Assembly (NCBI GenBank): GCA_902797855.1
Contig: CADBUI010000027.1
Location: forward strand, 42,639-106,638
Source of the DNA: an uncultured Erysipelotrichaceae bacterium
GTDB taxonomy: Bacteria; Bacillota_I; Bacilli_A; RFN20; CAG-826
Reading direction: 5' to 3'
Length of the DNA: 64,000 nt
The notes below the pieces were generated by a model. The model was not told the origin of the DNA. It saw only the letters and a list, made by a program, of their open reading frames with translations, and searched no databases. Numbering within the stretch: the first letter of the stretch is position 1; each line of letters starts with the position of its first letter. Below are positions 4,522 through 43,138 of the stretch, piece after piece. The translations under genes were made by a program, and so were the position numbers.

Positions 4522-4539
4522 GAAATATATATTATTTGT

Positions 4540-4760
4540 AGCGTTGATGAAGACACGCTTAATATCTCCTCTTAGTAGAGATAAGGATGGTTGGTGAAAA
4601 TCCTGATAAGAGAATATTAAGTACCACTTCGGAGCATTTAGGGAAATAACCTAAACGTCACTCGCGTTAAGAGATAATTAAGAGCATACCAGTTTGGTAT
4701 GAATTAAGGTGGTACCGCGTTAATATAGCGTCCTTATGTGGGACGCTTTTAATTTATTTA
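4540..4760 (+). promoter_or_regulatory. T-box riboswitch leader (Thr specifier) with intrinsic terminator, upstream of thrS
   Basis: Conserved T-box AATTAAGGTGGTACCGCG at 4702-4719, an AGAGA box, and a candidate specifier ACC-A (gtACCAct). Terminator hairpin AGCGTCC-ttatgtg-GGACGCT plus TTTT at 4728-4755. A possible promoter TTGATT-17-TATATT lies at ~4505-4533. Confidence 0.75.
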
Positions 4761-9332: not shown

Positions 9333-10465
9333 TTTATATTCTCCAAAATATTTTTAAGTTCTTTCACAAATATATCCACTTCTTCTATTGTGTTAGATTC
9401 ACTAAAAGATACACGAAGTGTATTCTTCGCCAAGTTATCATCATTAGTGATAGCTTTAACAACATATGAAGGGGCTTCATATTTTGAGTGACAGGCTGAA
9501 ACACTAGAAACATATATCCCTAAATTAGATAAAGCTTCCACTACCACAGCGGACTTTTTAGGCAATGATACATTAAAGATATATGGCGAGCATTCTTCGC
9601 TAGAATTAATCACAATTCCATCAATCTTTTTTATTTCTTCTCTTAAGTGATTATTTAACTCATAAACATGCTTAAGAGCACTGTCTTTACGTTTATTAGC
9701 GATTTGAACTGCTTTAGTTAGACTAAGAGCGTCCGCTAAAGAGATAGTGCCACTACGATATCCGTCTTCTTGACCACCACCACTTAATAAGGGAAGGAAG
9801 GAGATATTTTTCTTATAGAAAAGCGCTCCACTATTTTTAAGTCCATTTATCTTATGAGATGAAACAACAAACATATCAATAGAAGAATAATCTAAATCTA
9901 GTTTAGTAATCGCTTGAGTAGTGTCCACTAAAAGTGAGCATTTTGGAAATAAGCGAATTAGCTCGCTAATTTCTTTAATTGGGTTAATACTTCCAATCTC
10001 GTTATTCACGGCCATAATCGCCACTAAAATGGTCTTATCAGTTAAACTAGACTTGAGTTCATCTAGTGAAATGACTCCTTTAGAGTTAACAGCTAGTCTA
10101 GTAACAGTGAAGCCAAATTCTTTTTCTAGTTGATTAATAGCTTCACTAACAGAAGGATGTTCAATGTTAGAGGTAATGATGTGTTTGCCTCTATTTTGAT
10201 ATTTTAAGGCGTAGCCTTTAATCGCTAAGTTAAGCCCTTCTGTGGATCCAGAAGTAAAAATAATTTTATGATCTTTAAGATTAAATTCTTTCAAAAGAAT
10301 ATTTCTAGCTTTCTCAAGTAGATTATGAGCTTCAATACCTAAATGATGAGTGCTACTAGGATTAGCGAAATATTCATTATTTACTTTAACGTTTAAAGCG
10401 ACAACTTCCTCATTAGGTTTAGTTGTCGCTGCGTTATCAAGATAAATATTATATTTATTATTCAT
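9329..10465 (-). CDS. cysteine desulfurase (NifS/IscS family)
   Basis: NIYLDNAATT N-terminus and PLP-lysine region SSHKINGLK. The start is taken at MNNKYN (10465), which overlaps the ezrA stop. The track ORF's first 29 aa are judged a spurious extension. Same nifZ-thiI adjacency as in Bacillus. Confidence 0.8.
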   Translation of the reverse strand: MNNKYNIYLDNAATTKPNEEVVALNVKVNNEYFANPSSTHHLGIEAHNLLEKARNILLKEFNLKDHKIIFTSGSTEGLNLAIKGYALKYQNRGKHIITSNIEHPSVSEAINQLEKEFGFTVTRLAVNSKGVISLDELKSSLTDKTILVAIMAVNNEIGSINPIKEISELIRLFPKCSLLVDTTQAITKLDLDYSSIDMFVVSSHKINGLKNSGALFYKKNISFLPLLSGGGQEDGYRSGTISLADALSLTKAVQIANKRKDSALKHVYELNNHLREEIKKIDGIVINSSEECSPYIFNVSLPKKSAVVVEALSNLGIYVSSVSACHSKYEAPSYVVKAITNDDNLAKNTLRVSFSESNTIEEVDIFVKELKNILENIK

Positions 10466-12221
10466 TTTCGGAATGAGAATGTAGTCTTTGTAAAACGTTT
10501 CCGGTTGAAACGTAGGCTTGTTCAAATTCACCATCTTCAAATAACATTTCAACTTGATTTAAGAGTTGGTTTACATCGTTGAAATCCGCTCTTGAACGGT
10601 TCGCATAAAGCGCTGCAGATTCTGCCATAATCATTAAGTGGTTATCTTGAGAAACTCCACCGTTTTCACCAAGGACTTCATCAGATAGAGTCTTTAGTTC
10701 ATTAACAAGTTCATTTACTTCATCAACTTTGATTGGGGAAGTAAATAATAATTTATGGATATCAACGAGAAGTTCGTAGATACGTTTAATTCTTTCATCG
10801 TATTTATTTTTGATGTTTTCAATCCCGATATCTCTAATTGTTTTCTCAGCTTCTTTTACTTTGTAATAGACTTCATGAATCAAAGTGAAGGCGTTTTGAG
10901 AATCGTTTTTAAGAGAAATAAGATACTTATTGAAGTTAGCCATATCTTCAACAATTGCGTCACTAGCTTCTTTAAGTTCGGTCATCTTACTAACAAGAAG
11001 ACTATATGGTTGCTTAGTTGCTGAATGGATGAATGTATCAAGCGCACGTTTAAGTCCACCTAAACGGTCGATATCTTCTTGGATAGCGTTAATTTTATCC
11101 TTGTGTTCTTGATTTATGACATAAACCTTTTCAACTTCAGGAATGTTATTGCATAGTTTAATGAATCTGCGTTCGATAATATTAACATTATGATAGATTT
11201 CATCATTGGCTTCTTCGAAGAGTTTACGAGCGTGTCTTTCATCTTCAAATCTCGCAAAGTATTCTTCAATACGAGAAACCATGTTATCGAGTTTATCCCC
11301 TACTCCACTTAGATTAAATTGTTTGATACGAGTAACTAAAACGTTGATTTCGTTTTTCATTTCCTTAATTGCGGCAGGAACTTTTAAATAATCAAGTGGA
11401 TAACGTTCTTCACACATGATTTCAAAGGAATTTTGAAGTGAAGCAATCTTATCTGGGACAACACTAATAACCATGGTGCAGAGTTTTGGAAGTTCACTTA
11501 AACCTGCAGAGCATTGCTTTAAAATTGAATCAATTTGAGGAAGAAGCGCTTTAGCATCATCATATTGAGCAGAAAGAATGAAATCATCAACTTGGGTGAA
11601 GAGTTCATCTAAATGTTCAAAGATAGCGTTAAATGATTCTTTAACAAGATCTAAATCAGCTTGTTTTGAATAATAATCATTCTTCACTCTACGAGTGTTT
11701 TCTTTTAAAGAATAGACAGCAGTCTTACATTCTTCTTCTGGTTTAATGATTTCGATAAGTTCATTGTTGAGTTGGTTAATATCTTTTTCATAGGTCGCTA
11801 AAATTTCTTTAGCTTCTAAGATAGATTCACCTAGTTGTTTATATTTCTTATCATCGAGGAGATCTTTTAAATGGTTGATAGTGTGTTGAGTTTTACTATC
11901 ACGTTTATCTCTAATTTCTTTGAATTTTTTGAGATATTTGGTGTGAATATCAACATATAAAAGATTGCTACGAGAAATGTTTTCAAGTCTTTGAATATAT
12001 TGAGCGTCTTGTCCGATTAAAAGAGAATGGAGATAGTTGAATCTATGGTCAATATCTTTGATATCTCTTTTCATCTTTGTACGAGAAAAGACGAATTTAA
12101 TTAATATAAAAATAATCACTCCGATAAGAAGGATTGCTGCAACAATAATTACAGGTACTATCCAACCATTATCGTTTGTGTTTCCGCTTGCTGGTTCTAC
12201 TTCACTTAATAACTTAATCAT
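10458..12221 (-). CDS. ezrA: septation ring formation regulator EzrA-like protein
   Basis: N-terminal TM anchor followed by ~520 aa of coiled coil. Conserved position next to rpsD and nifZ-thiI, as in B. subtilis. Confidence 0.65.
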   Translation of the reverse strand: MIKLLSEVEPASGNTNDNGWIVPVIIVAAILLIGVIIFILIKFVFSRTKMKRDIKDIDHRFNYLHSLLIGQDAQYIQRLENISRSNLLYVDIHTKYLKKFKEIRDKRDSKTQHTINHLKDLLDDKKYKQLGESILEAKEILATYEKDINQLNNELIEIIKPEEECKTAVYSLKENTRRVKNDYYSKQADLDLVKESFNAIFEHLDELFTQVDDFILSAQYDDAKALLPQIDSILKQCSAGLSELPKLCTMVISVVPDKIASLQNSFEIMCEERYPLDYLKVPAAIKEMKNEINVLVTRIKQFNLSGVGDKLDNMVSRIEEYFARFEDERHARKLFEEANDEIYHNVNIIERRFIKLCNNIPEVEKVYVINQEHKDKINAIQEDIDRLGGLKRALDTFIHSATKQPYSLLVSKMTELKEASDAIVEDMANFNKYLISLKNDSQNAFTLIHEVYYKVKEAEKTIRDIGIENIKNKYDERIKRIYELLVDIHKLLFTSPIKVDEVNELVNELKTLSDEVLGENGGVSQDNHLMIMAESAALYANRSRADFNDVNQLLNQVEMLFEDGEFEQAYVSTGNVLQRLHSHSENE

Positions 12222-12341
12222 AATCGTAAAAATAATATCATATTAGGCGGATTTGTTAATACAAAAATCATAAATAAGACACTATTTAGATATTTCAAAA
12301 CAGTCCCAAAAAATTCCTAATATAAATATTAGAGGATTTTG

Positions 12342-12370
12342 TTGACAAGGGCATAATACTTATATATTAT
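12342..12370 (+). promoter_or_regulatory. sigma-A promoter of rpsD
   Basis: TTGACA, 17-nt spacer, TATTAT. Confidence 0.55.
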
Positions 12371-12530
12371 ATTTCTTGCATTTACGCAGCATGTAAATAC
12401 AACTTGTCTAATGTCTAGAACGATTGTGAAAGAGTAGCCGCTGCTCAAAGGTGAAATTTATATCTAGAACATCCGGGGTTGGGATTTGCACCTCTTGCTT
12501 AATGCACTTAAGTGAAAGGAGACATATATC
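12371..12530 (+). promoter_or_regulatory. structured rpsD 5' leader (candidate S4 autoregulatory element)
   Basis: ~160-nt leader with hairpin cATTTACgcagcatGTAAATac and palindrome CACTTAAGTG immediately before RBS AAAGGAG. Confidence 0.35.
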
Positions 12531-13133
12531 ATGAGATATACTGGATCAGACTACAAACGTTCACGTCGTCTTGGTTTTTCCACTCTTGAAACAGGTAAAG
12601 AACTCCAAAAGAGAGCTTATGGTCCTGGTCAACACGGTGTTGATAGAAAGAAAAAACCATCAGAATACGGCAAACAATTGATCGAAAAACAAAAACTTCG
12701 TCAAATGTATGGCGTTAACGAAAGACAATTCAAACGTTTATTCAAACTCGCCAGTGCTTCTGATGAAGTTACTGGTATCGCTTTCTTCAGAATTCTTGAA
12801 TCTCGTTTAGACAACCTTGTCTTCCGTATGGGATTTGCAAGAACTAGACGCGCTGCTCGTCAACTCGTCAACCACGGACACATTACTGTCAATGGTAAGA
12901 AAGTCGATATTCCATCATACCTTTGCTCTGTCGGTGACAAAATCGCCCTCAAAGAAGGTCATGATCTCAAAGTGGTCAAAGATGCACTCAATGAAAAACC
13001 AGCTTCAGTTGGTTATGTCAAAGTTGATGCTGAAAAGCTCTCAGGTGAATTCGTCCGCGTCCCAGAACGTAACGAACTTCCAAAAGACATTAACGAAGCT
13101 CAAATCATTGAATACTACAACCGCTTACTGTAA
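12531..13133 (+). CDS. rpsD: 30S ribosomal protein S4
   Basis: MRYTGSDYKRSRRLGFS...; S4 domain. Confidence 0.9.
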   Translation: MRYTGSDYKRSRRLGFSTLETGKELQKRAYGPGQHGVDRKKKPSEYGKQLIEKQKLRQMYGVNERQFKRLFKLASASDEVTGIAFFRILESRLDNLVFRMGFARTRRAARQLVNHGHITVNGKKVDIPSYLCSVGDKIALKEGHDLKVVKDALNEKPASVGYVKVDAEKLSGEFVRVPERNELPKDINEAQIIEYYNRLL

Positions 13134-26273: not shown

Positions 26274-26365
26274 ATCTCTTCCTCCTATTAATCGATGTTA
26301 AAAACACGATTATTCGTCAACTTATTGTAGCACATCCATTTTTTATATTAAATTTTAATTTAAAA

Positions 26366-26390
26366 AGAGCAGAAACTTAATTCTGCTCAA
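26366..26390 (-). terminator. terminator after the Rhs-cassette lipoprotein gene
   Basis: Minus strand GAGCAGAA-ttaagtt-TCTGCTC followed by TTTTT. Confidence 0.5.
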
Positions 26391-26399
26391 TAAGTGTAA

Positions 26400-27227
26400 T
26401 TACACAACTATTTCGTATGTTGGATCAGGAGGACCATAGTAAAAATAGTCGAAATCAACTAATGGCTCGAAATTTGATATTTTGGTTCCATCTTCCCATT
26501 GCAAATTAACTTTAATTAAGTTGTTTTCTTTAATGTTGCGAGTCTGTTCTTTCATAGAATCAATATATTCATCAACATCAAAAGTGTTGTAATCATAGTC
26601 AGTCAAATTATCTAACATATCCCAAAAACTTATCTGTAAATAGGGTAATTCAGGACAATCACGGAAATAACTAATTGAATCATTCCCACGAATCATAAAA
26701 TCGTGAGAAAATATGATATTAATTGAGAAATCATCTATGATATTGCTTATCAAGCCATTTTTTTCGCCATATCTCAGGCAAAAATTTGTGTACTTTAAAT
26801 GAGGTTCCTTATTCTCTCTGCGATCGTCTCTACTATTAGTACTATTTTTATAATCTGTTCTTCTTTGAAACTCACGACCAGTATATGACATGTATGGAGC
26901 CGAATTGGTAAAATATGGTGCGTTAAAATAAAAATTATTTGTTGCCGAGTTATATGGTATATGAATTACCAAACTATTATCTTTGCCAAATTCAAATGTA
27001 TCAGGCAATTGATAGGAATCTAAAATGTTTGTTTCAACACTACCTTCATAAAAACCAGTAATACTTTCGTAGACTTCATATTTAACGTATTGATACCTAA
27101 TGTTTGTGTTTTGATCAAAAAAAATTATTTCCTTAATATTTTCCATACCGGAACTATGACACGAATTCAATAAAATAACTGGAAGAATTGAACTAAATAC
27201 CGCGATTTTCTTAATATTATTTTTCAT
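26400..27227 (-). CDS. exported lipoprotein; candidate cognate immunity protein of the Rhs toxin
   Basis: Signal peptide plus lipobox LLNSC. Its start overlaps the Rhs stop (ATGA). No homology recognised. Confidence 0.55.
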   Translation of the reverse strand: MKNNIKKIAVFSSILPVILLNSCHSSGMENIKEIIFFDQNTNIRYQYVKYEVYESITGFYEGSVETNILDSYQLPDTFEFGKDNSLVIHIPYNSATNNFYFNAPYFTNSAPYMSYTGREFQRRTDYKNSTNSRDDRRENKEPHLKYTNFCLRYGEKNGLISNIIDDFSINIIFSHDFMIRGNDSISYFRDCPELPYLQISFWDMLDNLTDYDYNTFDVDEYIDSMKEQTRNIKENNLIKVNLQWEDGTKISNFEPLVDFDYFYYGPPDPTYEIVV

Positions 27228-30200
27228 ATACTCTTCCTCTTAATTATAAAGCCACAAATAAATTTTCGACCAACTTCATTTACTAAATCCACATTCCATC
27301 TATTCGAAAGGCTCGAAAAATATTTAGTCGTCTCGTTCGGAAACATGTACCCATTAAGTTCATAAAACATCGAATTAGAAATATCGCTAATCGGTATTAT
27401 CATAGTAGTATGACTTGTCAAACTAGGAATATTTGTTGAATTAGGAATAAATCCATTTATATATGTCGAAATTATAGCGCAATCCATTGAAAATTCGCCA
27501 TAGTCAGATATCAAATCCTCTACACTAGTTCTTATTGGACCAACTTCTATCTCGTCATATTTTGTGAGCATCTCGTGAATGTGGGTTGGGAAAGCGCCAA
27601 GCTGACCAAATAATAGAGATTTCTTTTCGCATTCAGCGATTAAATTAGGGAATAACAAATCATCTTCTTCGGCGGTGAAATGTCTAAGAGCTGGAAGATT
27701 ACAGAATAAAAGGGCATTATATGAAGTGATTATTGTGCAACCAGCTTTGTTGATATTTTTTGAACCAAACTTTAATGATTCTGCCTCGGTTTTCGCCTGA
27801 TTATTGAAATATGCTGTAGATGTAGTGTCTCCAGAGATTGTTGTCAATAAAGTATCTTTTAATCGTGGGTTTTGTGTCCAAACCTCTACATTATGTTCAT
27901 AGTTTGATTTAGAAATTGATAAAATAACATACTCTAGTGGGCTTATATAGCAAGTCCACCAACCAACATTATCTATATTAAACAAATTAGCATTAAGCAA
28001 CTCATTTGCGATAATATCGTGAACAACCATTAATTCATATAAATGATTGCCGGCAAAATGTGTAATAAATGAACCTATAGAATTCATGGTGTTTGTAGTT
28101 ATTTTTTTAATGTAGTCTATAATGTTCGAATTATTATTAGATACAAGTGTTGATAACAAAGGGGCACCTTGTGTTAATAAGGCAATACTGACTATTGGAT
28201 TGGTAATTATTGCAACTACAACAGTAACTGCAGTGACTACAGCGGTTAAACCAATCAAAAGCACATCCAAAATAGAGAATTTTCCACTTGGATCGCTTCT
28301 CATGATAGGATTGTTATTACAATATGAGAATAGGTTAAACTGAGCAGAATCTAATTTATCTTTGATAGTGTCATAGATATTATCTGGAGATATAAATCTT
28401 CTTAACAATGGCGAGTAATACCTATTGATTAAATAATATAATCCTGATTCAGAGTCATAATAATAACCCTTGTAGTAGAAATGGTTATAACCAGCAATGC
28501 TAGTTTCTTCATTTATAGAAACGAGCTTACCAAAGTCATCATAAGAATAAGAAGCAACAATTTGGCCAGATGAATCTATAATCTTTCTAATTATTCCTAA
28601 TATGTCTCGATAATAATAGTAATAATTTGACGAATTACTCTTATCTAATCTAAATCCAATTAGTTTATCGTTTTCGTCATAAAGATAAATGATTGTAGCG
28701 TCATTAGACTTTTCAACTAACAGGCGATTATCTTCATAGAAATAATTGATAACGTTGTTACCGTGTTGTTTTTTAATTCTACGATTTTGATAATCATATA
28801 AATAAGTATATGTTTCGTTATTCACTGATACTGCTGCTAGTTTATCGGCAAGCCAGGAAAGCTCTAAATCTCCAATCGAAGATGGATAAAGCGATTCGTC
28901 ATATGCATAAGTTAATTGGACATAATCTACATTATTCTTCTTAATTCCTATCAATTTATGACCGAAATGGGAATCGTAAATATAATCATAGATATTGCCA
29001 CTCGAATCGCTCACTTTTAAAATATTACCAAGAACATCATATTCATAAAGTGTTGGGTCTTGATTATTTAATTTAGATGAAACGAGTCTATCAAGATAAT
29101 CATATTCGTAATGAATTTCATCATTATTACAAGTAACGCAAGATACATTATTGTTCAAATCATAACCATATGATCTAGTTTCAATAGAACTTGTTTCGGA
29201 AAGAACCTTTGTCGAAGTTCTACCTTGGATAGGATTATTCTCGTTATCAAGTGGGGTAATATAGTTAAGTGATTTTGTAACACTACCGATGTTAGTAGAT
29301 ACGACTCTACCCATCGAGTCAATTTCTTTATAATTTGAGAATACTCGAATCGAAGAATTGGAAATTGCTTGATGATCAAGACAATAGATAAAATCCTTCA
29401 AGTATCCGTTTAAATAATCGGTGAAAACTGTATAACTAGAATTATTTGCAGTTGCACCCATAGATACATGATCTAAAGAATCGTTGAATGATAAGGAATC
29501 TATCAACGCATCATTAATATATATTTCTAGAGTTGAAGATAAACATTTCAACCTAAGAGAATACCAAGTGTTAATAGATGCATTAAAAGTAGTAGAAGTT
29601 ACGTTACCGTTGATATTAATTCTTAAATTACCATTATATAAATGAATGTTGAGTACACTACTAAAACTGGAGTCTGATAATGAAACAATAGTTTGATTAG
29701 ACCCGAATAACTTAGGAATAAAGAAATCAATTTTTAGATCAAAATCAGTAAACGGGTTAAATTGGTACACTAATCGACTCGTTTTCCCTAATAGCGAATA
29801 TTCATTTGAAAAAGATTTGTAAACGTGTCGCTTAAGTGAATTATCCCATAGGAAATCGTTTGGTTTATCAAACTTATCGTTTGTGATAGTTTCACCACAA
29901 ACAAGAGGAGAAATGTTTTTGCTAGAAATGTAGTTATCATCCAAAGACACATAATCGTAATCGTTATTTGACAAAGAAGATGATTTGACTCCCGAATAAG
30001 TGTGAATTAAATAAGGCTTAATTAAGTAATCGTATCCTTCATTATAGATTGATTTTATTTCAGTAGGAGAATAGGCATAACATCCAAAACTTAGATGAAG
30101 GATTTTTGTATAGGAAATAATCGGTGATCCAAAAGGAGTATTGAGTGGGCGAATAAAAGTTTCTGGACCAATCAGCAAATAATCAGCGTATTCAAAATAT

Positions 30201-33200
30201 AGCGGATTATTAGAACCATCAGTCAATGTTAACAATAATTCTCCGTTTAAGTAAAACTCTCCAATCGTATCATTTCCAACTTGTTTCATTATAAGTGCAC
30301 ACATCATCCAATCGGAAATAGTCGCGCCTAACGGTTGACTTGTTTGTGTATAATTTCCTAATTTTAAAGTGATCGTTCCGCCTGTATCAAAGTAGGCATA
30401 ACATGTTTTTGCAGAACCGGGCATGTAATAGAAACAAAGAATTGGAACACCTGAAAATAGTCCATCAAATTTCACCCACGCAACAGCGGATCTTGTAGAT
30501 GCAAATTTATTGTCCCATTCGCTCTTGTTAAAAGTTTCGCCTGCGATAGTTTTGCTTCTAGTAGAATTAGCTTCTAATAAATTATATGCAATGATTTTGC
30601 CGCTAGCTCTAATGCTCGCTACTTTTTTATGAAGTGTTTCATCAAAAATATATTTTAAAGAAGTGGACTCACATAAATTGTCATATGGTTGGGCGCCGTA
30701 TCTACTTTTTAAAGATAGACCACCATCAACTTGATCATCATTAAAAACATAATCAACTTTATTGATAAATTCTCGAGGTGATAAATTATTAATCTCATAA
30801 TTTCTGACAAAGTCAGTTGATTCATTTAGATTAATAGCGGATACATTTTTATGTTGGATTTTATTTAAATTATCGTAATAGTTTGAGTAAGAGAAACCTA
30901 ATGATGAAGAGACACTATTTATTAACTTGTCTCTTGAATAAGAAATTGTGATAGTTTCTAAATTCTGTGTATTTACGATTTTATTTAATCGATTAAAAAT
31001 GTCATACGAAAATTCTGCAATAAGTTCATCCTCAGTATAAACATTTGCCAATCGATAAGATTCATCGTAAGTATATTTGGTGTGATAATAGCTATCACTT
31101 AATATTGTTTTTGTATCAAGTAATGGGCAACCATCAATAATTACTCCATCGATATAACTCTGTGAAACGATATGAGTACAATTGTATGAAGCGTTGCTTA
31201 GTCGACCATACTCGTCATAGCTAAATTCATACTTATCATCATTGGTTAGATTAATTGCAACTAAGTTATTTTGGTTATAACTAAAAGATATTGTTCCACT
31301 GCTATCGACATATCTACCTCGTTCAAGTTCAACGATTTTACCGCTTGTGTCATAAACTTTTCTAATTAATGATGCGTTAGGCAAACAAGTCATAATGCAT
31401 TGTCCAAACTCGTTATAACAATAAGATGTCACTTTTCCTAGGTCATCTATTTTGTTATGACTACCATCTATATTATTTTCAGATGTAACAATGCTTAATC
31501 CTTCAGAATTTGTGAATGTGATACTGGTTTCGTCATCATCACAATCTATTGAAACTTGATTACCAAAATTATCGCTAATTTCAATAGGTTTACCATCTTC
31601 GTTATATGAATAAGTTAGATTAGAACCAAGATTTGTTTCACTGCTGCATAAATTACTATTTAAATAGCTGTTTGTTTGAGATAACCCATTTGAATCAATC
31701 GCAACAAGTTTCCCTCCGTCATCATAAGAATACATTTGACACTTCTCATCAATAAATAATTGAGCGCAAGTAACAAGTGCTTCTTTATATCCCTGTCGCT
31801 TAATAGTTATAAAAACTTGTATAAAATCAATATCTGCAACAATTGAAGTGGTTAATAGCTGCCAAGAATCTTGTTCCTTAACAGCGTGAACAATGTAATC
31901 TTTATCATCGAATCCATGAATGGTTAGTTGCACACTAAAATCGTTATTTTGATCTAAATCAGCGTTAACCAAACACGAGAAGGTTATTGTCTGCCCTCTT
32001 TTTCCAACAATATTAACATTTTGAGTAAGCGAGGACACGATTGGTTCTGCGCTTGGAATAAATCTTAATGAAGGGGCATTTATTGAAAAGACATTATCCG
32101 ATGGGGAAGTTGGCAAAACTTCAACATGATTATTATCGCTTGCGGTCCAATTCCTAATAGGATTATTAATGTCGCCCTCTTCATTAAAGAAGCTATTTTG
32201 AACATAGTTAATTTGGTTAGATGAAGAAGATTCATCAAGTGATAAAGAATTAAATTTAATGAAAGAATTATTTGCGATTTCGCATTCCAATATAAGCGAC
32301 GATTCGTCTGGAATTATAATGTTTTCTTCGTTTAAATTGTGCCACTGATTGTCACCAATAAGATTGAACGAGACTGTAGAAGTATGCGTTGTTTTTGTGG
32401 AACGATAGAAAGGGTGTGGACTATTTAGTGGGTGAGATGGTATTTGTTCTGTTGTTACGTAGGTCATCTCAATATTAAGAGTTTGATTCTTGTCTGTTTT
32501 ATAATAGCCCTTCAAACGATAAGTTCCATAATGAGGTCCACCCAAATCCTGGGAAATAGTCTCATTTGATGTACTACTATTTGTGAAAACTATTGAGGTT
32601 TTACCATCTATTTCTTCGATATCGTTATCTAAGACAACATCAACGCTAGATAATTCCCAAATTTCATAATCATTGGAATTAATGTTGTTATTAATCAAAT
32701 TACGATAATACGCAAGAAGCCTATGGGTATTTGTTGGTAAATGAACACAATTCTCTGAATCTCGCGGATCTTCTATTAATGAGTATGAATTGGAGGAGGA
32801 AATATAAGAAGAATCAACCACATTAGATGGTGTTCCATCATTATTAAAATAATATGTTTTTTCTCCACTAGTATCATTAATGGTTGCAGACATATCATCG
32901 TAAGAAATTAGCATAGGATTTAATGGGGAAGAATTATTATTAAAAATCACTCTTGGTAATATCTTAATTAAACGATTATCTAAATATTCTAATAAGCATG
33001 ATTTGCCGGATAATTTGTCGATAATTTCAGAGATTTTAGATTCATTATTATAGAATATAGAAATATCCTTAATAAGAACTTTGTTTTCATTTGGCTCATT
33101 AGTTGGATCAAATTCAAGCCTATACATCGAAATATTTTTAATTAATCCATTAGAATAGGCGATATCAGAAATATAACCTTTAGTGGACGTTATGCTACAA

Positions 33201-34297
33201 ATTTTTGGTAACTCATTAGGAACATTATCACTATAGTTAAGAGTAATAACATCATCTTCGTTAGTGATACTTATCAGTTGTTTAACGTTATTATTATTAA
33301 CTGAAACGTCTCGATATTGGAAAGTGCTTTCCCTTCCATTTGGTGATTTAGATTTAATAAAGATGATTTGATTAGCATATAAATTAAATTCAAGCGTTGA
33401 TTTATTCTTATAGTGAAGGTGGTAATTAGTGTTATCAAAAGTAATATATGAACCATCTTCAAAACAATAATATGCAAAATCATCCACAATTCCTAAAGTG
33501 TCTAAATCTGATCTTTCGGTGAATTTTGTATATTTTAATTTTGTGCCCAAAGAATCTATTATTGTGAATGTATCATTATTAAATTCGCAATAGCGATAAG
33601 TAGATAAATTCCATCCGCCAAATTCCTTTCCACCAAACAAAGATGAAGAATAATCTAATGACAAATTAAAAGAATCATTTACAAGATTAGGAATAGTTAG
33701 GTTTACACTTAAAAGAAGATGTCCATAATTAAGTGAAACCAAACCGGAAATATTTTTTCCTAAAAAATCATCTAATTTGTAATAAGGTAGATAAGAATGA
33801 TATCCACCCTTTTCCTGGCATTCAAAATCAATATAATCGACATTTCCAAACGTTGGATGAGGAAACATCATAAGGGATTTGTTAGGTGTCACAAGTTTCA
33901 TGTATAAAGACTTATTCTTCACATCACCAGAAACACTTTTAACAAATTTGGTAATATCAAAAACAACATAACTTTCAACATCGGGGATGATTGATGAAGT
34001 AGCTTGGCCAAGTCCAGCACTAACTAAATCAATTAGATTCCAATTCGTATCATATAAAGCAAAGACTAAGCCATATGACAATGTTGCAAAGAAACAGGTA
34101 ATTAAACATTTTTGGATATGGTAAGCACTCAAATCGAGATTTTGGCCTTTAAACGTTAATTTAACTGTCGAATTAGAATTAATTGTTTTATATAAAGCGG
34201 GATAGGAAATGGTATTGAATTGATCATTATCCGAATCGCGAAATGAAGTTGATAAATGAATCTGGTAATTAGTATTAGTAAATATTTTCATAATCAA
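27224..34297 (-). CDS. Rhs/YD-repeat polymorphic toxin (2357 aa) with variable C-terminal toxin domain
   Basis: Dozens of YD repeats (YSYDDFGKLV, YTYDESYRL, ...). Rhs core RYYSPLLRRFISPDN plus the demarcation motif YCNNNPIMRSDPSGK, followed by a unique 351-aa C-terminal region. Confidence 0.9.
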   Translation of the reverse strand: MIMKIFTNTNYQIHLSTSFRDSDNDQFNTISYPALYKTINSNSTVKLTFKGQNLDLSAYHIQKCLITCFFATLSYGLVFALYDTNWNLIDLVSAGLGQATSSIIPDVESYVVFDITKFVKSVSGDVKNKSLYMKLVTPNKSLMMFPHPTFGNVDYIDFECQEKGGYHSYLPYYKLDDFLGKNISGLVSLNYGHLLLSVNLTIPNLVNDSFNLSLDYSSSLFGGKEFGGWNLSTYRYCEFNNDTFTIIDSLGTKLKYTKFTERSDLDTLGIVDDFAYYCFEDGSYITFDNTNYHLHYKNKSTLEFNLYANQIIFIKSKSPNGRESTFQYRDVSVNNNNVKQLISITNEDDVITLNYSDNVPNELPKICSITSTKGYISDIAYSNGLIKNISMYRLEFDPTNEPNENKVLIKDISIFYNNESKISEIIDKLSGKSCLLEYLDNRLIKILPRVIFNNNSSPLNPMLISYDDMSATINDTSGEKTYYFNNDGTPSNVVDSSYISSSNSYSLIEDPRDSENCVHLPTNTHRLLAYYRNLINNNINSNDYEIWELSSVDVVLDNDIEEIDGKTSIVFTNSSTSNETISQDLGGPHYGTYRLKGYYKTDKNQTLNIEMTYVTTEQIPSHPLNSPHPFYRSTKTTHTSTVSFNLIGDNQWHNLNEENIIIPDESSLILECEIANNSFIKFNSLSLDESSSSNQINYVQNSFFNEEGDINNPIRNWTASDNNHVEVLPTSPSDNVFSINAPSLRFIPSAEPIVSSLTQNVNIVGKRGQTITFSCLVNADLDQNNDFSVQLTIHGFDDKDYIVHAVKEQDSWQLLTTSIVADIDFIQVFITIKRQGYKEALVTCAQLFIDEKCQMYSYDDGGKLVAIDSNGLSQTNSYLNSNLCSSETNLGSNLTYSYNEDGKPIEISDNFGNQVSIDCDDDETSITFTNSEGLSIVTSENNIDGSHNKIDDLGKVTSYCYNEFGQCIMTCLPNASLIRKVYDTSGKIVELERGRYVDSSGTISFSYNQNNLVAINLTNDDKYEFSYDEYGRLSNASYNCTHIVSQSYIDGVIIDGCPLLDTKTILSDSYYHTKYTYDESYRLANVYTEDELIAEFSYDIFNRLNKIVNTQNLETITISYSRDKLINSVSSSLGFSYSNYYDNLNKIQHKNVSAINLNESTDFVRNYEINNLSPREFINKVDYVFNDDQVDGGLSLKSRYGAQPYDNLCESTSLKYIFDETLHKKVASIRASGKIIAYNLLEANSTRSKTIAGETFNKSEWDNKFASTRSAVAWVKFDGLFSGVPILCFYYMPGSAKTCYAYFDTGGTITLKLGNYTQTSQPLGATISDWMMCALIMKQVGNDTIGEFYLNGELLLTLTDGSNNPLYFEYADYLLIGPETFIRPLNTPFGSPIISYTKILHLSFGCYAYSPTEIKSIYNEGYDYLIKPYLIHTYSGVKSSSLSNNDYDYVSLDDNYISSKNISPLVCGETITNDKFDKPNDFLWDNSLKRHVYKSFSNEYSLLGKTSRLVYQFNPFTDFDLKIDFFIPKLFGSNQTIVSLSDSSFSSVLNIHLYNGNLRININGNVTSTTFNASINTWYSLRLKCLSSTLEIYINDALIDSLSFNDSLDHVSMGATANNSSYTVFTDYLNGYLKDFIYCLDHQAISNSSIRVFSNYKEIDSMGRVVSTNIGSVTKSLNYITPLDNENNPIQGRTSTKVLSETSSIETRSYGYDLNNNVSCVTCNNDEIHYEYDYLDRLVSSKLNNQDPTLYEYDVLGNILKVSDSSGNIYDYIYDSHFGHKLIGIKKNNVDYVQLTYAYDESLYPSSIGDLELSWLADKLAAVSVNNETYTYLYDYQNRRIKKQHGNNVINYFYEDNRLLVEKSNDATIIYLYDENDKLIGFRLDKSNSSNYYYYYRDILGIIRKIIDSSGQIVASYSYDDFGKLVSINEETSIAGYNHFYYKGYYYDSESGLYYLINRYYSPLLRRFISPDNIYDTIKDKLDSAQFNLFSYCNNNPIMRSDPSGKFSILDVLLIGLTAVVTAVTVVVAIITNPIVSIALLTQGAPLLSTLVSNNNSNIIDYIKKITTNTMNSIGSFITHFAGNHLYELMVVHDIIANELLNANLFNIDNVGWWTCYISPLEYVILSISKSNYEHNVEVWTQNPRLKDTLLTTISGDTTSTAYFNNQAKTEAESLKFGSKNINKAGCTIITSYNALLFCNLPALRHFTAEEDDLLFPNLIAECEKKSLLFGQLGAFPTHIHEMLTKYDEIEVGPIRTSVEDLISDYGEFSMDCAIISTYINGFIPNSTNIPSLTSHTTMIIPISDISNSMFYELNGYMFPNETTKYFSSLSNRWNVDLVNEVGRKFICGFIIKRKSI

Positions 34298-35169
34298 AAC
34301 ACCTTCAAGTTGTTATTAAATAATTCAACAGCAAAACTATTTTCGTTAAACATTAGATCGTTCACCACTACATCAAACGGCCGATTGAGTCGATTAGATA
34401 GATAGGTTTTTATTTCGTGTGATATGTTATTAATAAATTTTCCATTCCTAGAGAGTTCACAATATATATCAACATCACTGAATGATGTTTGCTCATTTTT
34501 AGCGTATGAACCTAGAAGATACAAATGTAAGATATAATAATTCTTCTTTAGAAAAGCTTCGCAAGAGATAATCTCATTTACTAAAGATTCCGTAGAAATC
34601 AAAGGATACTGTTTATTCAAACTATTAGTGCGTTCATACACCTCAATAAGCGTTTCTTTAATCAATGATTTGTCAAAAATCATTTTCTTAATATCGCCTT
34701 TCCTAAAAGCAAAAGGAAAGCTCTTATGAACAAACAATGGAATATTTACTATTGTTAATGATATCTCTTGGCATAGTTCGTATTGTTCAAACACACTGAG
34801 GCAACGAACCAGCAAACCTTCAAAGGATGAAAACGTTAACAGTTCATTTGCTTTTATCAATAAGTGAGATAGCTCTTGCTTCTGACTACTATCTAGGTTT
34901 AGCTCACTAACTGAATTAAAATAACTAACAACATAGTCGAATGATGCTTGAGCGTCATCAATAACCATTTGTTGATGCACCATTTTATTAAAAATAGAAA
35001 ACATCTCTTCTGTTTTGTTTTCAGGAGTTATTGAAATATCACCTTTATAAAGCTTCTTTAGCCGAGAATATGATTGTTTATAATCAAAATCGTGGTAAAG
35101 ATATTCCACAAATTTAAAAGGAATCTTAGGATTATACTCCGATGATAACATTATTTTTTCAGTCATCAC
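34294..35169 (-). CDS. protein with C-terminal minimal nucleotidyltransferase (Pol-beta superfamily) domain; first gene of the Rhs cassette
   Basis: LYLLGSYAKNEQTSFSDVDIYCEL...RPFDVVV matches the hG[GS]-x9-13-Dh[DE]h MNT signature. The ~200-aa helical N-terminal region is unassigned. Its stop overlaps the Rhs start (ATGA). Confidence 0.55.
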   Translation of the reverse strand: MMTEKIMLSSEYNPKIPFKFVEYLYHDFDYKQSYSRLKKLYKGDISITPENKTEEMFSIFNKMVHQQMVIDDAQASFDYVVSYFNSVSELNLDSSQKQELSHLLIKANELLTFSSFEGLLVRCLSVFEQYELCQEISLTIVNIPLFVHKSFPFAFRKGDIKKMIFDKSLIKETLIEVYERTNSLNKQYPLISTESLVNEIISCEAFLKKNYYILHLYLLGSYAKNEQTSFSDVDIYCELSRNGKFINNISHEIKTYLSNRLNRPFDVVVNDLMFNENSFAVELFNNNLKVF

Positions 35170-35171
35170 TA

Positions 35172-35180
35172 ATTATACCA
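35172..35180 (-). promoter_or_regulatory. extended -10 promoter (TGGTATAAT) for the Rhs cassette, likely giving a leaderless transcript
   Basis: Minus strand TGgTATAAT-tagtg-ATG. No SD is present and the start codon lies ~7 nt after the -10. Confidence 0.4.
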
Positions 35181-35253
35181 AAACTGTAATCAAAATTCAT
35201 AATATATTAAATATAGATATACAAAATTGCGTAATTATTTGTATAATTAACCT

Positions 35254-35733
35254 ATGTCCAAAAAGGTCGAAAATAAGAAACTTAAAATCAATCCAAAGCG
35301 AATAATTCTCATATTTGTTGCTTTATTTTTTGTTTTTGAAGCTATCTTTTATTTCACTCTTCAACCTTGGTATTTAGGTGATTGGTATCCGTTTGATAAA
35401 TTACCATTTTATCTATACACGACTGGTGTAGGTGCTTTATCAGTAATATTCTGCATTGTGTCTATAACACAGACTTACTATATTGTTGATAAATCTTGCA
35501 TCATTCATAACAAGATGGGACATGAGTATCGTTATCGTTTTTCTGAGATGCTATATATCGATGAAGAATGGTCAAAAAAACATAAGATGCTTCTATTTTA
35601 TTTAGCGGATGGGAAATCTAAATTTTTAGCGTTCGACCGCGATGGAATAATCTTTGATTATGCGCTTACTTACGCGGTCCATAGAATGAGCAAAGAAGAG
35701 TTTCAATCTCGTTATCCAAATGTTAGACTTTAA
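35254..35733 (+). CDS. small membrane protein with two TM helices and a bacterial PH-like (YdbS/YdbT-like) domain
   Basis: Two N-terminal hydrophobic helices followed by a ~100-aa soluble domain. TGTATAAT lies 6 nt before the ATG, suggesting a leaderless mRNA. Confidence 0.45.
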   Translation: MSKKVENKKLKINPKRIILIFVALFFVFEAIFYFTLQPWYLGDWYPFDKLPFYLYTTGVGALSVIFCIVSITQTYYIVDKSCIIHNKMGHEYRYRFSEMLYIDEEWSKKHKMLLFYLADGKSKFLAFDRDGIIFDYALTYAVHRMSKEEFQSRYPNVRL

Positions 35734-37030: not shown

Positions 37031-37720
37031 CTATATATTAATTAAAGAAATAATATAGATAAGACCACTAATAAAGGAAAGGATAATCATTATCCATTCT
37101 GTGTATGCAAGTGGAAAATATTTTGGTCTAGCGTATGTTAACTCTGTATCTTCACCAACTTTTTCAAGTTTTGCCCAGCTTTTTAGTTTTGGGTTAAACA
37201 TAAATAACAGAGTTATTAATGTGAACACTCCTGAAATAATTCCAAGTGAAAGATGGAAACTTGATCCAGTTGATTGAGTGGAATATAGATAAGACATATA
37301 GAAACAATAAAATGTCGTTAAAGCAGAAATTAAAAATGTTAACGCCATAAAGATGGTTGAAATAATAGCGTGCTGTTTAACGTAGAATATTGAAATATTA
37401 ATTAGACTGATGCTAGATAGATGAGTTAAAGCGATAAGCGCAGCAATTACTACGCTTAGAGTAAACATCCCTCCGAATGCTTCTTTATTGATGATAATAA
37501 TCACTAAAATAAATAGTGACACTGCGGAAAATATATAATTTGATATCTTAAAAAGATATCCTTTATCATATCTAGTTACAATTTCACTAGGAAAAGAATT
37601 GGTAGGCGAAAACTTTTTTATTTCTTTACTAGTGGATAAATATGCACATAGTAGTTCAATAACAAAAGCAAGTACGTAGACAATAATTCCAATTATCCAA
37701 AGGATATCTATTTTTATCAT
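37031..37720 (-). CDS. hypothetical polytopic membrane protein (~6 TM)
   Basis: Hydropathy only. It occupies the slot where Bacillus has thiN. Confidence 0.5.
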   Translation of the reverse strand: MIKIDILWIIGIIVYVLAFVIELLCAYLSTSKEIKKFSPTNSFPSEIVTRYDKGYLFKISNYIFSAVSLFILVIIIINKEAFGGMFTLSVVIAALIALTHLSSISLINISIFYVKQHAIISTIFMALTFLISALTTFYCFYMSYLYSTQSTGSSFHLSLGIISGVFTLITLLFMFNPKLKSWAKLEKVGEDTELTYARPKYFPLAYTEWIMIILSFISGLIYIISLINI

Positions 37721-40868: not shown

Positions 40869-41895
40869 GTTGATCTTTTGCTCTTAGTTGTCCACATGCT
40901 GCGTCAATATCATTTCCGAATTCTTTTCGAATTGTCGTGTTCACTCCATGTTGGAGGAGATATGAGAAGAAAGCGTGGACTGTTTTATCATCACTCCTTA
41001 AAAAGGAGTTCTCATCGACTGGATTATATGGGATGAGATTGACGTAGGCTAATGTGCCCTTAATTAGTTTAACTAATTCTTTTGCACATTCAAGGGAATC
41101 ATTAACGCCTTTGAGCATTATATACTCAAAAGTTACTCTACGATTTGCCTCTTTTTCATAATACTTCACTGCTTCCATTAACTTAGGAAGAGGATAGCCT
41201 TTTGAAATAGGCATTATCTTATTTCTAATTTCATCATTTGGAGCGTGAAGAGATATTGCTAAATTGATTTGAAGTCCTTCGTGAGCGTACCTCATTATTC
41301 CTGGAATTAATCCACATGTTGATACGGTGATATGTCTAGCTCCAATTGCCATTCCTTTTGGGTGATTCATTATTCTAATGAAATCAAGGACATTATCATA
41401 GTTATCAAATGGTTCTCCAGTACCCATTACCACAATATGAGTGACCTTTTCATTTTTCTCTTCAAGAATAGAATTCATGACGAGGACTTGCCCAACTATT
41501 TCGCTCACTTCAAGATTTCTTTTCTTTTTAAGTAGTCCACTAGCGCAAAAAGCACAAGCCATATTGCATCCTACTTGGCTAGAAACACAGATGGCATTCC
41601 CATATCTATATGGCATTAAAGCAGTTTCGACTTTTGAGCCATCATTAAGTTCTAGAAGAATCTTAATTGTGCCATCTTTGCTATCTTGTCTTCTATATAG
41701 TTTTGGAAGTTCTAGACAAAAATCTTTATTAAGAACTTCACGGAATGATTTAGAGACATCACTCATCTCATCAAAACTCCTAGCTTTCTTTTCATATAGC
41801 CAAGTGAAAAGTTGAGTTGCGCGATATCGCTTTTGTCCATAAGATATCATCAACTCTTCTAGTTTAGTGAGTTCAAGTCCGTATAAATTAATCAT
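40852..41895 (-). CDS. rlmN: 23S rRNA/tRNA A2503/A37 C2-methyltransferase (radical SAM)
   Basis: CVSSQVGCNMACAFCASG radical-SAM cluster motif. Confidence 0.9.
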   Translation of the reverse strand: MINLYGLELTKLEELMISYGQKRYRATQLFTWLYEKKARSFDEMSDVSKSFREVLNKDFCLELPKLYRRQDSKDGTIKILLELNDGSKVETALMPYRYGNAICVSSQVGCNMACAFCASGLLKKKRNLEVSEIVGQVLVMNSILEEKNEKVTHIVVMGTGEPFDNYDNVLDFIRIMNHPKGMAIGARHITVSTCGLIPGIMRYAHEGLQINLAISLHAPNDEIRNKIMPISKGYPLPKLMEAVKYYEKEANRRVTFEYIMLKGVNDSLECAKELVKLIKGTLAYVNLIPYNPVDENSFLRSDDKTVHAFFSYLLQHGVNTTIRKEFGNDIDAACGQLRAKDQHEKGN

Positions 41896-43138
41896 TATCT
41901 TTCTTCTTTAAGATTGCGTAATACATTAATGTATCTTTATCTTCAAATGAGAAATATTGTTTTGATTCAATAAGTTCAAATTCTTTGTGTCTATTAACAA
42001 AATCATTAATAATTGCAACGCTTTCTTTCTTATCAAGAGTGTCAACGATGTAAACAAGTTTACATCCTGGTCTCACGAATTTAGAAAATCCTTCAAGGGA
42101 TGCTTTTTGATTATCAATAAGTGAATCAAGACTATCTTGCTTAAAGTGAAGTAGATAATCTGGATATTTTCTAATTTTGTCAAATGAGGATGATTTTGGA
42201 TAGACCACCACTAAGTCTTGAGGAGAGGTAATCGCTAAATCCATAAGCGAATAATCATTTGGAACAAAATAGGTAACGTTTTTACATTTCTCAAGTCTAA
42301 TTAAACGTAATAAATCTGGATGTTCATCAAGATTATTCACCGCCACTCTTAGGCCAGCTTTCTTATTTGTTCTAACGTATAGGTCTCTTGTAGCGGCTTT
42401 ATCATCACCTAGATATAAAGTCATCTCTTCAATATCGTCTGTGTAGACTTTGTCTAAGATTTCTTTTAAGGCTAGTCTAATGTTAAAGATTTCATAGTTT
42501 TGATAGGCTTTGAGTTTATGGATGTTTTCTTTTGTCGATAAATAGACAACATCTTTTACATTACTGCTAACAAAGCTAGGATGTTCTTTTAAGAAATCTT
42601 CTTCACTAATCTTCATCGTATTGATGCGGAAATATTGATTGGATGGTTTAATGTTTTTCTTAAGAACTTTGTAGGTAAGTGATCTACCATAATGCTTAAA
42701 CCACATCTTAAGTAGATAAGAAGGAACATTAAATCTAAGGGAGACAAATTCCATTGAAGAATGGTCAACACTTTCCCCTAGTGAGTCTAGTGCTGCACCA
42801 TCAAAAGTTAATAATTCATTAATTTTATCATTATAGGATTCATTAAGAGTTTCTTTAATAAAAGAAGTGACTTTTTCTTTATCAATTCTTCTTAAGAAGA
42901 AATTATTCGCTAAAGCGAGCAAAAGAAGATATTTATTATCTCCTAAGTCAAATTCTTTAACGAGTTTAGAAAGAAATAAATGATGACGAAGTTCACATCC
43001 ACTTAAAGCAGACACAATAGGAGTAAGTTCAGCATCTTTTTCATTAGCTAAAAATACTTCTTTAATAGCTTCTTTAAAGGTTTTATCTTCTTCGATGACA
43101 CGTTTAATAACTTCTTTTGAGAGTAGTAGTTCTTTCAT
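41888..43138 (-). CDS. RsmB/Sun-family protein with degenerate SAM-binding and catalytic motifs (probable pseudo-methyltransferase)
   Basis: NusB-like N-terminal domain and RsmB-like layout, in the syntenic position upstream of rlmN. The CAAPGGKT, DAPCSG and TC motifs are replaced by LGDDKAAT / ITSPQD / VD. Confidence 0.55.
   Translation of the reverse strand: MKELLLSKEVIKRVIEEDKTFKEAIKEVFLANEKDAELTPIVSALSGCELRHHLFLSKLVKEFDLGDNKYLLLLALANNFFLRRIDKEKVTSFIKETLNESYNDKINELLTFDGAALDSLGESVDHSSMEFVSLRFNVPSYLLKMWFKHYGRSLTYKVLKKNIKPSNQYFRINTMKISEEDFLKEHPSFVSSNVKDVVYLSTKENIHKLKAYQNYEIFNIRLALKEILDKVYTDDIEEMTLYLGDDKAATRDLYVRTNKKAGLRVAVNNLDEHPDLLRLIRLEKCKNVTYFVPNDYSLMDLAITSPQDLVVVYPKSSSFDKIRKYPDYLLHFKQDSLDSLIDNQKASLEGFSKFVRPGCKLVYIVDTLDKKESVAIINDFVNRHKEFELIESKQYFSFEDKDTLMYYAILKKKDND

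Follow-up and report, generated by a model that had tools for sequence, protein, structure and literature searches.

How does an Rhs toxin leave its producer and enter its target in bacteria without a type VI secretion system (T6SS), and what protects the producer? Exit and entry in such bacteria are poorly understood, and a three-gene locus of an uncultured Erysipelotrichaceae bacterium raises the question in the form of a compact, testable system in gut-associated Bacilli. The locus lies in a 64,000-nucleotide stretch of contig CADBUI010000027.1 (assembly GCA_902797855.1), the whole of which is called the window here, and its genes, all on the minus strand, encode from 5' to 3' a protein with a C-terminal nucleotidyltransferase (NTase) domain, a large Rhs/YD-repeat protein and a lipoprotein. 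On balance, the locus is probably a polymorphic Rhs toxin-immunity cassette, and belongs to a distinct subfamily that has so far come to light in uncultured Bacilli only. The toxin-immunity part is well supported by comparison of sequences, and the organisation of delivery may be distinct as well.

The Rhs shell and its exchangeable tip

A first-pass annotation of this DNA had identified the second gene product as an Rhs protein, and profile searches bear this out: the protein matches RHS_repeat (PF05593; 5.4e-15, 55.8 bits against a cut-off of 22), TIGR01643 and the Rhs-associated core model TIGR03696 (68.5 bits against a cut-off of 32.5), while Rhs chains in the PDB match it at E-values down to 4e-22. 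An N-terminal region and a subfamily-specific region are followed by a YD block, a LamG-like insert of ~570 amino acids (aa), a second YD block, the Rhs core and a C-terminal toxin region. The core is closed by a PxxxxDPxG motif, PIMRSDPSG, at which autoproteolytic release would be expected from knowledge of the family, and the hydrophobic segment directly behind it is present in all members of the subfamily compared. The arrangement had been called unlike any textbook Rhs, and this view holds: a hydropathy scan gave no signal peptide at the N-terminus, the first weakly hydrophobic stretch lying near residue 61, Pfam and NCBIfam scans of the protein gave no PAAR/prePAAR, VgrG-binding, LXG or WapA-type wall-binding domain, and no T6SS genes were seen in the window, where the neighbours are housekeeping genes. 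Relatives in the subfamily are collinear with the window protein over residues ~240-2045 at 23-25% identity. The C-terminal domains and downstream genes of these collinear scaffolds differ, Gly-rich hydrophobic domains being followed by multi-pass membrane proteins and a small His-motif domain by a cytosolic 175-aa protein.

The last 250 aa of the window protein form the candidate toxin domain. An exhaustive HMMER search over 1.84 billion representative proteins gave only seven matches to it, two of them from the same species (P0002, P0003). In three others the domain ends an Rhs fragment of the subfamily to which the window protein belongs (P0144, P0145 and P0147, the assignment of P0144 being by sequence), with Pfam RHS_repeat matches in two of the three; P0143 is a stand-alone 277-aa protein with the domain, and P0146 (1611 aa, with Big_13, tail-chaperone and tailspike-type Pfam matches) is a hit without an aligned stretch. 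In the alignment Gln60, Cys80 and His189 are invariant and an Asn or Asp stands near position 208. In an AlphaFold2 (AF2) model of the domain (predicted template modelling score 0.71, mean predicted local distance difference test (pLDDT) score 64.5) the Cys begins a helix and the His lies in a strand, as in papain-like peptidases, whose oxyanion Gln would correspond to the invariant Gln; papain-fold matches include deubiquitinase-like and Cif-like enzymes. It is concluded that the domain has a papain-like fold and falls outside any named sequence family. No relative of this domain or of the NTase family was found on viral contigs, and a phage origin was rejected on that ground.

The third gene product has a lipoprotein signal peptide, MKNNIKKIAVFSSILPVILLNSC, with the lipobox LNSC and Cys23 (27159-27161). 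Asn at lipobox position -2 is unusual; in strains L001 and L002 the allele carries the canonical SSSC, and LNAC, VISC or LTSC occurs in relatives. The protein matches no family in Pfam, NCBIfam, PADLOC or the PDB. A lipoprotein gene nevertheless stands directly 3' of every toxin-domain homologue that could be placed on a contig: the downstream lipoproteins have 266 and 276 aa in L001 and L002, 262 aa in L020 (LNAC) and 273 aa in L023 (VISC), and in L021 an Rhs fragment with the papain-fold domain is followed at 10288-12719 by five tandem lipoprotein paralogues (131-150 aa, 47-68% mutual identity, LTSC), a set that looks like an immunity array. Homology between the lipoproteins of different lineages was tried and dropped as not significant (hmmsearch E-value 0.004 on four sequences; hhalign 0.2%).

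Toxin tip and lipoprotein vary together, as a check proposed with the first-pass annotation had asked, both in the lipoprotein genes that follow toxin homologues and in one sharply bounded divergent block between strains. Identity between the window and L001 is 42-79% inside this block (27450-26430) and 93-100% on both sides of it, and the synonymous divergence (dS) of the lipoprotein gene is 1.22 against 0.13-0.18 for neighbouring genes; the block is, to judge by this pattern, an allelic replacement of a toxin-tip/immunity unit. A separate second variable patch appears to comprise the hydrophobic segment and linker behind DPSG, as 24 of the 112 amino-acid differences between the window protein and that of strain L006 fall within the 100 residues after the motif (residues 2001-2100; ~27990-28290), where the non-synonymous divergence (dN) is 0.13 against ~0.02 elsewhere. 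The lipoprotein most likely protects the producer as an immunity protein, judged by its position and co-variation with the toxin tip, and since such a protector is exported and membrane-tethered, the toxin would be expected to act outside the cytoplasm, at the wall or the external side of the membrane.

Natural deletions point in the same direction. At the cassette's chromosomal site ~7.1 kb is missing from strains L001 and L002, where the NTase gene breaks off after 31 or 40 codons and runs on in frame into the last ~250 or ~160 Rhs codons; each strain has its own junction, with 5-6 bp of microhomology, and the L002 copy is further shortened by a stop. In L020, a more distant case, P0145 likewise starts with the NTase family's N-terminal signature, MLSYNPKIDFKF, after which come the final ~690 Rhs residues. 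The three fusions are independent deletions, each of which removes the NTase and the scaffold and keeps the promoter, start codon, toxin tip and lipoprotein gene, although the search could find in-frame fusions only and their in-frame state is partly an effect of ascertainment. Read in the simplest way, the deletions mean that the lipoprotein needs the cassette promoter, and translation that reaches its own start, to be expressed, and they thereby lend indirect support to a single operon. In L006 the cassette is intact and 95% identical to that of the window, with dN/dS ratios of 0.15 for the NTase, 0.23 for the Rhs protein and 0.11 for the lipoprotein, which indicates that all three genes are kept by purifying selection. 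At least the toxin tip and the lipoprotein occupy the same chromosomal site in all four strains of the species. The locus thus shows, in natural strains, how a toxin-tip/immunity cassette is swapped and how a toxin is lost while its immunity is retained.

The nucleotidyltransferase upstream

The nucleotidyltransferase domain called in the first gene product was recovered above cut-off by two models (PF18765, 4.5e-8; PF01909, 1.6e-7), and its residues GS 219-220, D231, D233 and D265 are invariant in the alignment of both paralogue types, A and B, of its family. By these signatures the product is a Pol-beta superfamily nucleotidyltransferase, apparently active. The closest named family is MntA, which the protein matches over residues 207-269 only and below threshold (NF047752, 25.7 bits against a cut-off of 60); its nearest PDB relatives are MntA-type proteins (5yep, E-value 4e-6), and it also matches the candidate defence models PDC-S09. 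Residues 1-190 are predicted to form an all-helical N-terminal domain, for which profile searches of PDB sequences and Pfam gave no match, and an AF2 model (10 family members) is confident for the NTase domain only, residues 1-183 having pLDDT <50. A guess from the alignment that this N-terminal domain might be a degenerate Fic or HEPN domain found no support and was dropped.

Full-length relatives of the window NTase are confined to one small family with two paralogue types, A (274-315 aa, with the N-terminal signature YNPKIDF) and B (286-301 aa); the window gene is an A paralogue, matching type A members over its full length at 2.7e-12 and 1.2e-10 in phmmer. No HEPN domain was found in the cassette or in any related locus examined, and for want of such a partner the NTase genes do not form a type VII toxin-antitoxin pair. 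A HepT-like gene in L007 is part of a separate small pair of the minimal nucleotidyltransferase (MNT) type, 7 kb away.

In seven of the seven lineages with enough flanking DNA, the NTase family stands directly 5' of the same Rhs subfamily (gene orders in Table 1), the partner Rhs proteins of the relatives having ~2200 aa. The pairing persists despite protein identities of 15-24% and differing wider contexts, and NTase and Rhs genes overlap by stop and start codons at several of these loci. The pairing is no accident of neighbourhood. Relatives, for which genomes were scanned with one peptide pattern, were found only in uncultured 'Bacilli bacterium' metagenome-assembled genomes (MAGs) and in metagenomes from the gut or the environment. 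The immediate surroundings vary. In L003 (4895-6038, and equally in L004 and L014) the genes directly 5' of the NTase genes encode a small protein with sigma-70 region 4 and a holin of the Hol44 type (41 bits, cut-off 29), and in L025 (2-1010) open reading frames (ORFs) of 203 and 124 aa take the positions of the L003 sigma factor and holin. The Rhs gene of L012 (10285-17045) is split into two ORFs of 1543 and 709 aa, with a 299-aa lipoprotein in the usual place of the A-type NTase and an 833-aa CBM96/ricin-B protein just upstream. L027 has at 1271-2128 a third, more distant NTase paralogue (285 aa, N-terminus YNKKIDFK), 8 kb 5' of its A, B and Rhs genes.

A sister clade of the Rhs subfamily (L005 and L015-L018, in Bacilli MAGs of 23-28% G+C) has no NTase genes. 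Its upstream slot holds a protein of ~205-238 aa and a MurE-like ligase without the N-terminal domain (136-141 bits against a MurE cut-off of 257), the ligase gene overlapping the Rhs start in L005 and L017 and, in L015 and L018, ending at most a few bases from it. The idea that the 205-aa proteins are homologues of the NTase N-terminal domain was rejected (hhalign probability 0.07%). Two different ATP-using enzymes in one slot might, as a matter of speculation, speak for a catalytic accessory function. Since the NTases stay constant while toxin domains change, and are lost together with the scaffold, their partner would be the scaffold or its export, not a particular toxin.

Gene layout and genomic setting

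All three consecutive ORFs on the minus strand were recovered intact where the first-pass annotation had placed them (Table 1). It had also given ATGA overlaps at both junctions, which is right for the Rhs/lipoprotein junction (27227-27224), where the lipoprotein start overlaps the Rhs stop and a Shine-Dalgarno sequence, GAGGAAG, lies just 5', and wrong for the first, where the letters at 34297-34294 are TTGA. There the junction is TGAttATG, the NTase stop TGA (34296-34294) being followed two bases on by the Rhs ATG at 34291. The public collection has the 2355-aa ATG form of the Rhs protein and not the 2357-aa TTG form; the Rhs start is likely ATG 34291 rather than TTG 34297, and the genes remain tightly packed. 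For the NTase gene, ATG 35166 is most likely the start, giving 290 aa, to judge by the first five codons from it (MTEKI), identical in every strain; a Met codon seven codons further on is lost in L001 and L002.

The extended -10 promoter proposed for the cassette, TGGTATAAT, is present and conserved, TGnTATAAT being kept across four strains, whereas the motif is not enriched window-wide (TGNTATAAT occurs four times against 5.9 expected). No -35 box matching 4/6 or better lies upstream of it. The -10 box ends 5 nt before ATG 35166, which leaves no space for a Shine-Dalgarno sequence, and if TGGTATAAT is the promoter, the mRNA would therefore be leaderless. On the plus strand, a TATAAT box at 35242-35247 ends 6 nt before the ATG of the divergent 159-aa membrane-protein gene, again without a Shine-Dalgarno sequence, so that both genes of the 84-bp divergent region look leaderless; nearby glgC, by contrast, has a strong AGGAGG. 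The hairpin and T-run reported to close the cassette hold up well (GAGCAGAA-loop-TTCTGCTC; -12.4 kcal/mol, z = -4.5, with 0 of 200 shuffles equally stable), and gene packing and the deletion variants together suggest one transcript for all three genes.

Both housekeeping blocks said to enclose the cassette were found, glgC/glgD/glgA/leuS downstream and rpmB, gpsA, rpe, rsgA and pknB upstream, with the 159-aa gene intervening before rpmB; further out lie the core genes ezrA, tyrS, thiI and those of ATP synthase. The compositional bias that had been noted is real, as Asn, Tyr, Ser and Ile account for 32-37% of residues in the cassette proteins and for 24% in 12 housekeeping proteins encoded in the window, but the horizontal acquisition read from it does not follow. 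G+C at third codon positions is 0.24-0.29 in the cassette genes and 0.24 in the housekeeping genes, so that the lower G+C stems from amino-acid content and protein type, not from foreign codon usage, and recent transfer as a reading of composition was rejected. Elsewhere in the window, a T-box leader (4535-4738, plus strand) scores 108 bits, with a gathering score of 93, and precedes a 578-aa ORF (4773-6509), and two conserved minus-strand ORFs within the rpe-rsgA-pknB-rlmN block (37031-37720, 229 aa; 41888-43138, 416 aa) have no Pfam family on record, in the window or in strain L006.

Table 1. Positions of the features discussed, in window coordinates unless a related locus is named; gene orders run from 5' to 3'
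Feature	Position	Strand	Basis or remark
Gene 1 ORF	34294-35169; likely coding span 34294..35166	-	290-aa protein, C-terminal NTase domain
Minimal nucleotidyltransferase domain	residues ~203-270; 34357-34560	-	PF18765, PF01909; GS...DxD and third Asp intact
Gene 2 ORF	27224-34297; likely coding span 27224..34291	-	2355-aa Rhs/YD-repeat protein
PIMRSDPSG (PxxxxDPxG motif closing the Rhs core)	28283..28309	-	TIGR03696 match extends up to the motif
Hydrophobic/transmembrane segment, ~45 residues	28148..28279	-	hydropathy scan; directly after the cleavage motif
Putative toxin domain, last 250 aa, papain-like cysteine-peptidase fold	27227..27976	-	candidate catalytic residues, AF2 model
Candidate catalytic residues	Gln 27797-27799, Cys 27737-27739, His 27410-27412, Asn 27353-27355	-	alignment
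Gene 3 ORF	26400-27227	-	275-aa lipoprotein, candidate immunity protein
Swapped allelic block	26430..27450	-	last ~75 toxin codons and whole lipoprotein gene
Extended -10 promoter-like element TGGTATAAT	35172..35180	-	inferred function; 84-bp intergenic region
Shine-Dalgarno-like GAAGGTG	34300..34306	-	8 nt 5' of Rhs ATG 34291
Intrinsic terminator GAGCAGAA-loop-TTCTGCTC, then TTTTT	26362..26388	-	hairpin 26388-26367, 8 bp stem
159-aa membrane-protein gene	35254-35733	+	divergent from cassette, between cassette and rpmB
In-frame NTase-Rhs fusions	L001 64-918; L002 1582-2190; L020 2550-4658		first 13-40 NTase codons kept
Sister-clade ligase-type slots	L005 427-2428; L015 6374-8358; L017 6099-8178; L018 148-2147		
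Gene order, window/L006			A, Rhs
Gene order, L003/L004/L014			sigma factor, Hol44-type holin, A, B, Rhs
Gene order, L007-L009			extracytoplasmic function (ECF) sigma, two unknowns, A, B, Rhs, DUF6560-like membrane protein
Gene order, L010/L011			A, B, Rhs
Gene order, L012/L013			lipoprotein, B, Rhs
Gene order, L025			A, B, Rhs
Gene order, L027			A, B, Rhs

Proposed mechanism, rivals and known systems

A mechanism may be sketched from these features. The conserved extended -10 promoter would drive the three genes, probably from a leaderless mRNA and with coupled translation, and the Rhs shell would encase the hydrophobic segment and the peptidase tip and cleave itself at DPSG. Export would take a non-Sec route, the protein being without a signal peptide; some relatives have a holin and a dedicated sigma factor beside the cassette. 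On a competitor cell, the freed C-terminal piece would anchor in the membrane and its peptidase domain would attack a wall or surface substrate on the outer face, while on sister cells the surface-tethered lipoprotein would block the toxin. Least certain is the part of the NTase, which might serve the scaffold as an adaptor or chaperone, or might nucleotidylylate the Rhs protein or a partner for folding, export or activation. A bolder proposal is that the NTases, and the truncated MurE-like ligase with its 205-aa partner in the sister clade, are dedicated enzymes that attach a covalent modification to the Rhs protein or to a component of the envelope, thereby opening a route of export, anchoring or activation in monoderm Bacilli that needs no signal peptide; it is tentative and, as matters stand, doubtful. 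If true, it would amount to a new Rhs delivery pathway whose upstream accessory slot holds a catalytic protein, not a chaperone.

Several observations weigh against the toxin-immunity cassette and the mechanism sketched for it. No significant similarity links the lipoproteins of one lineage to those of another, two short collinear motifs being all that appeared, so that their common role is deduced from position, lipobox and size; within the species there are two toxin-tip/lipoprotein haplotypes only, and the site of toxin action is deduced solely from where the presumed immunity protein sits. The toxin domain matches no Pfam or NCBIfam family and its model, from a six-sequence alignment, has moderate confidence only at a mean pLDDT of 64.5, while the NTase N-terminal domain has a pLDDT below 50 and no family match. 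The window cassette has one NTase gene, against two in most relatives, and is without holin or sigma factor, and the MurE-like ligase in the sister clade indicates that the NTase is not indispensable for such Rhs proteins. Promoter, leaderless start and single operon are themselves predictions.

Other accounts of the same genes have to be set beside this reading. The NTase could be an unrelated MNT-type antitoxin or defence gene beside the Rhs gene, the functional unit being the Rhs protein and lipoprotein only; the closeness of its domain to MntA antitoxins (5yep at 4e-6, with the NCBIfam MntA model below cut-off) and its match to the PDC-S09 candidate defence models would suit such an origin, genes of this kind being common in variable regions. 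Mere adjacency of this sort is nonetheless quite unlikely, given a family found directly 5' of the same Rhs subfamily in seven of seven lineages at 15-24% identity, its 190-aa family-specific N-terminal domain, the lack of a HEPN partner gene, the stop-start overlaps of NTase and Rhs genes at several loci and the loss of the NTase together with the Rhs scaffold in deletion strains. A more intimate role, as a second, enzymatic immunity that nucleotidylylates the toxin in the producer until export, as MntA does HepT, and leaves incoming toxin to the lipoprotein, would fit an MntA-like domain with intact catalytic residues encoded first in the operon. It too is unlikely, if a little less so: the NTases are constant while the toxin domains differ wholly (Gly-rich hydrophobic, His-motif, papain-like), deletion strains retain the toxin tip without the NTase, and a toxin acting outside the membrane needs no cytoplasmic neutralisation.

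The lipoprotein could alternatively act at the surface as a helper of the Rhs protein, for example by anchoring it, releasing it or aiding its binding to a receptor, rather than as an immunity protein, as might be argued from its lack of a match to any known immunity family and from an Rhs protein without an obvious export or anchoring device. An accessory of the Rhs protein, however, would hardly be retained after the scaffold is deleted or co-vary with the toxin tip and not the scaffold, and the five tandem paralogues in one relative have the usual look of an immunity array, while other toxin types in the subfamily are followed by different, non-lipoprotein genes; this role for the lipoprotein is very improbable. 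There is still less to be said for a cassette that targets eukaryotic host cells, as Tc toxins and large secreted toxins do, and the likelihood put on it is slight. Relatives do come from gut metagenomes, the papain-fold matches include deubiquitinase-like and Cif-like enzymes, and the holin and sigma factor of one relative recall clostridial toxin loci, but no TcA-like partner is present, and a linked, co-varying exported protein, immunity-like arrays and a gene kept after toxin loss point to self-protection against an activity on bacterial surfaces.

Among known systems, WapA/WapI of Bacillus subtilis is found, like the cassette, in a monoderm host and likewise combines a large YD-repeat protein, variable in its C-terminal toxin, with a specific protective gene directly 3' and allelic diversity within the species. 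WapA has a Sec signal peptide, wall-binding repeats, toxins acting in the cytoplasm and cytoplasmic immunity, whereas the window cassette has no signal peptide, a hydrophobic segment behind the core, a lipoprotein as presumed immunity protein and a dedicated upstream NTase gene. T6SS Rhs effectors (RhsA/EagR, Tse5) are alike in having a shell with a DPxG motif that encloses the toxin and a small upstream accessory gene tied to the scaffold and not the toxin, and Tse5 likewise encloses a hydrophobic C-terminal fragment (PMC10684867). In contrast to these effectors, no PAAR, VgrG or prePAAR element was detected in the window protein, and the accessory is an apparently active nucleotidyltransferase instead of a DUF1795-type chaperone. 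The LXG domain of type VII secretion system toxins was not detected in the window Rhs protein by Pfam or NCBIfam.

Bacterial teneurin-like proteins (PMC13018210) resemble the cassette in their YD-shell toxin, variable C-terminal domain and immunity gene directly 3'. Their authors describe no obvious delivery system for them either, and mention no nucleotidyltransferase or holin (PMC13018210); only the C-terminal part of the shell matches the window protein (PDB 9pt5, residues 1811-2032). Papain-fold toxin domains (Tox-PL1/2/3, Tox-PLC39; PMC3482391) likewise put a Cys/His papain-like fold at the extreme Rhs C-terminus, though the window domain matches no Pfam or NCBIfam model and has seven representatives in 1.84e9 proteins. 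Cell-wall amidase effectors with exported immunity are comparable in that their immunity proteins, like the one presumed here, sit outside the cytoplasm. The first gene product has a catalytic core of ~70 residues that most closely resembles the MntA adenylyltransferases of type VII HepT-MntA systems; the protein differs from these in falling below the family cut-off (25.7 against 60), in its 190-aa family-specific N-terminal domain, in the lack of a HEPN partner and in always standing beside an Rhs gene.

Holin-dependent release of large toxins is known from clostridial TcdR/TcdE loci and from type 10 secretion of Tc toxins. The small sigma factor and Hol44-type holin 5' of the NTase and Rhs genes in L003 and L004, together with Rhs proteins without signal peptides, bear a likeness to it, which is a lead only, the window cassette having no holin or sigma factor and no endolysin or spanin having been seen. 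Full-text literature searches, whose incomplete coverage makes them weak evidence of novelty, turned up neither an NTase accessory gene described for Rhs toxins nor a Gram-positive link between holins and Rhs, and a 2012 survey of polymorphic toxins lists papain-like toxin domains and no NTase accessory; the NTase-Rhs pairing is probably new to the literature. The locus gives a handle on a possible enzymatic step in the maturation or export of Rhs toxins, and it departs from known Rhs variants by four traits, namely its conserved upstream NTase partner, the hydrophobic segment before the toxin, a new and very rare papain-fold toxin domain and lipoproteins as immunity candidates.

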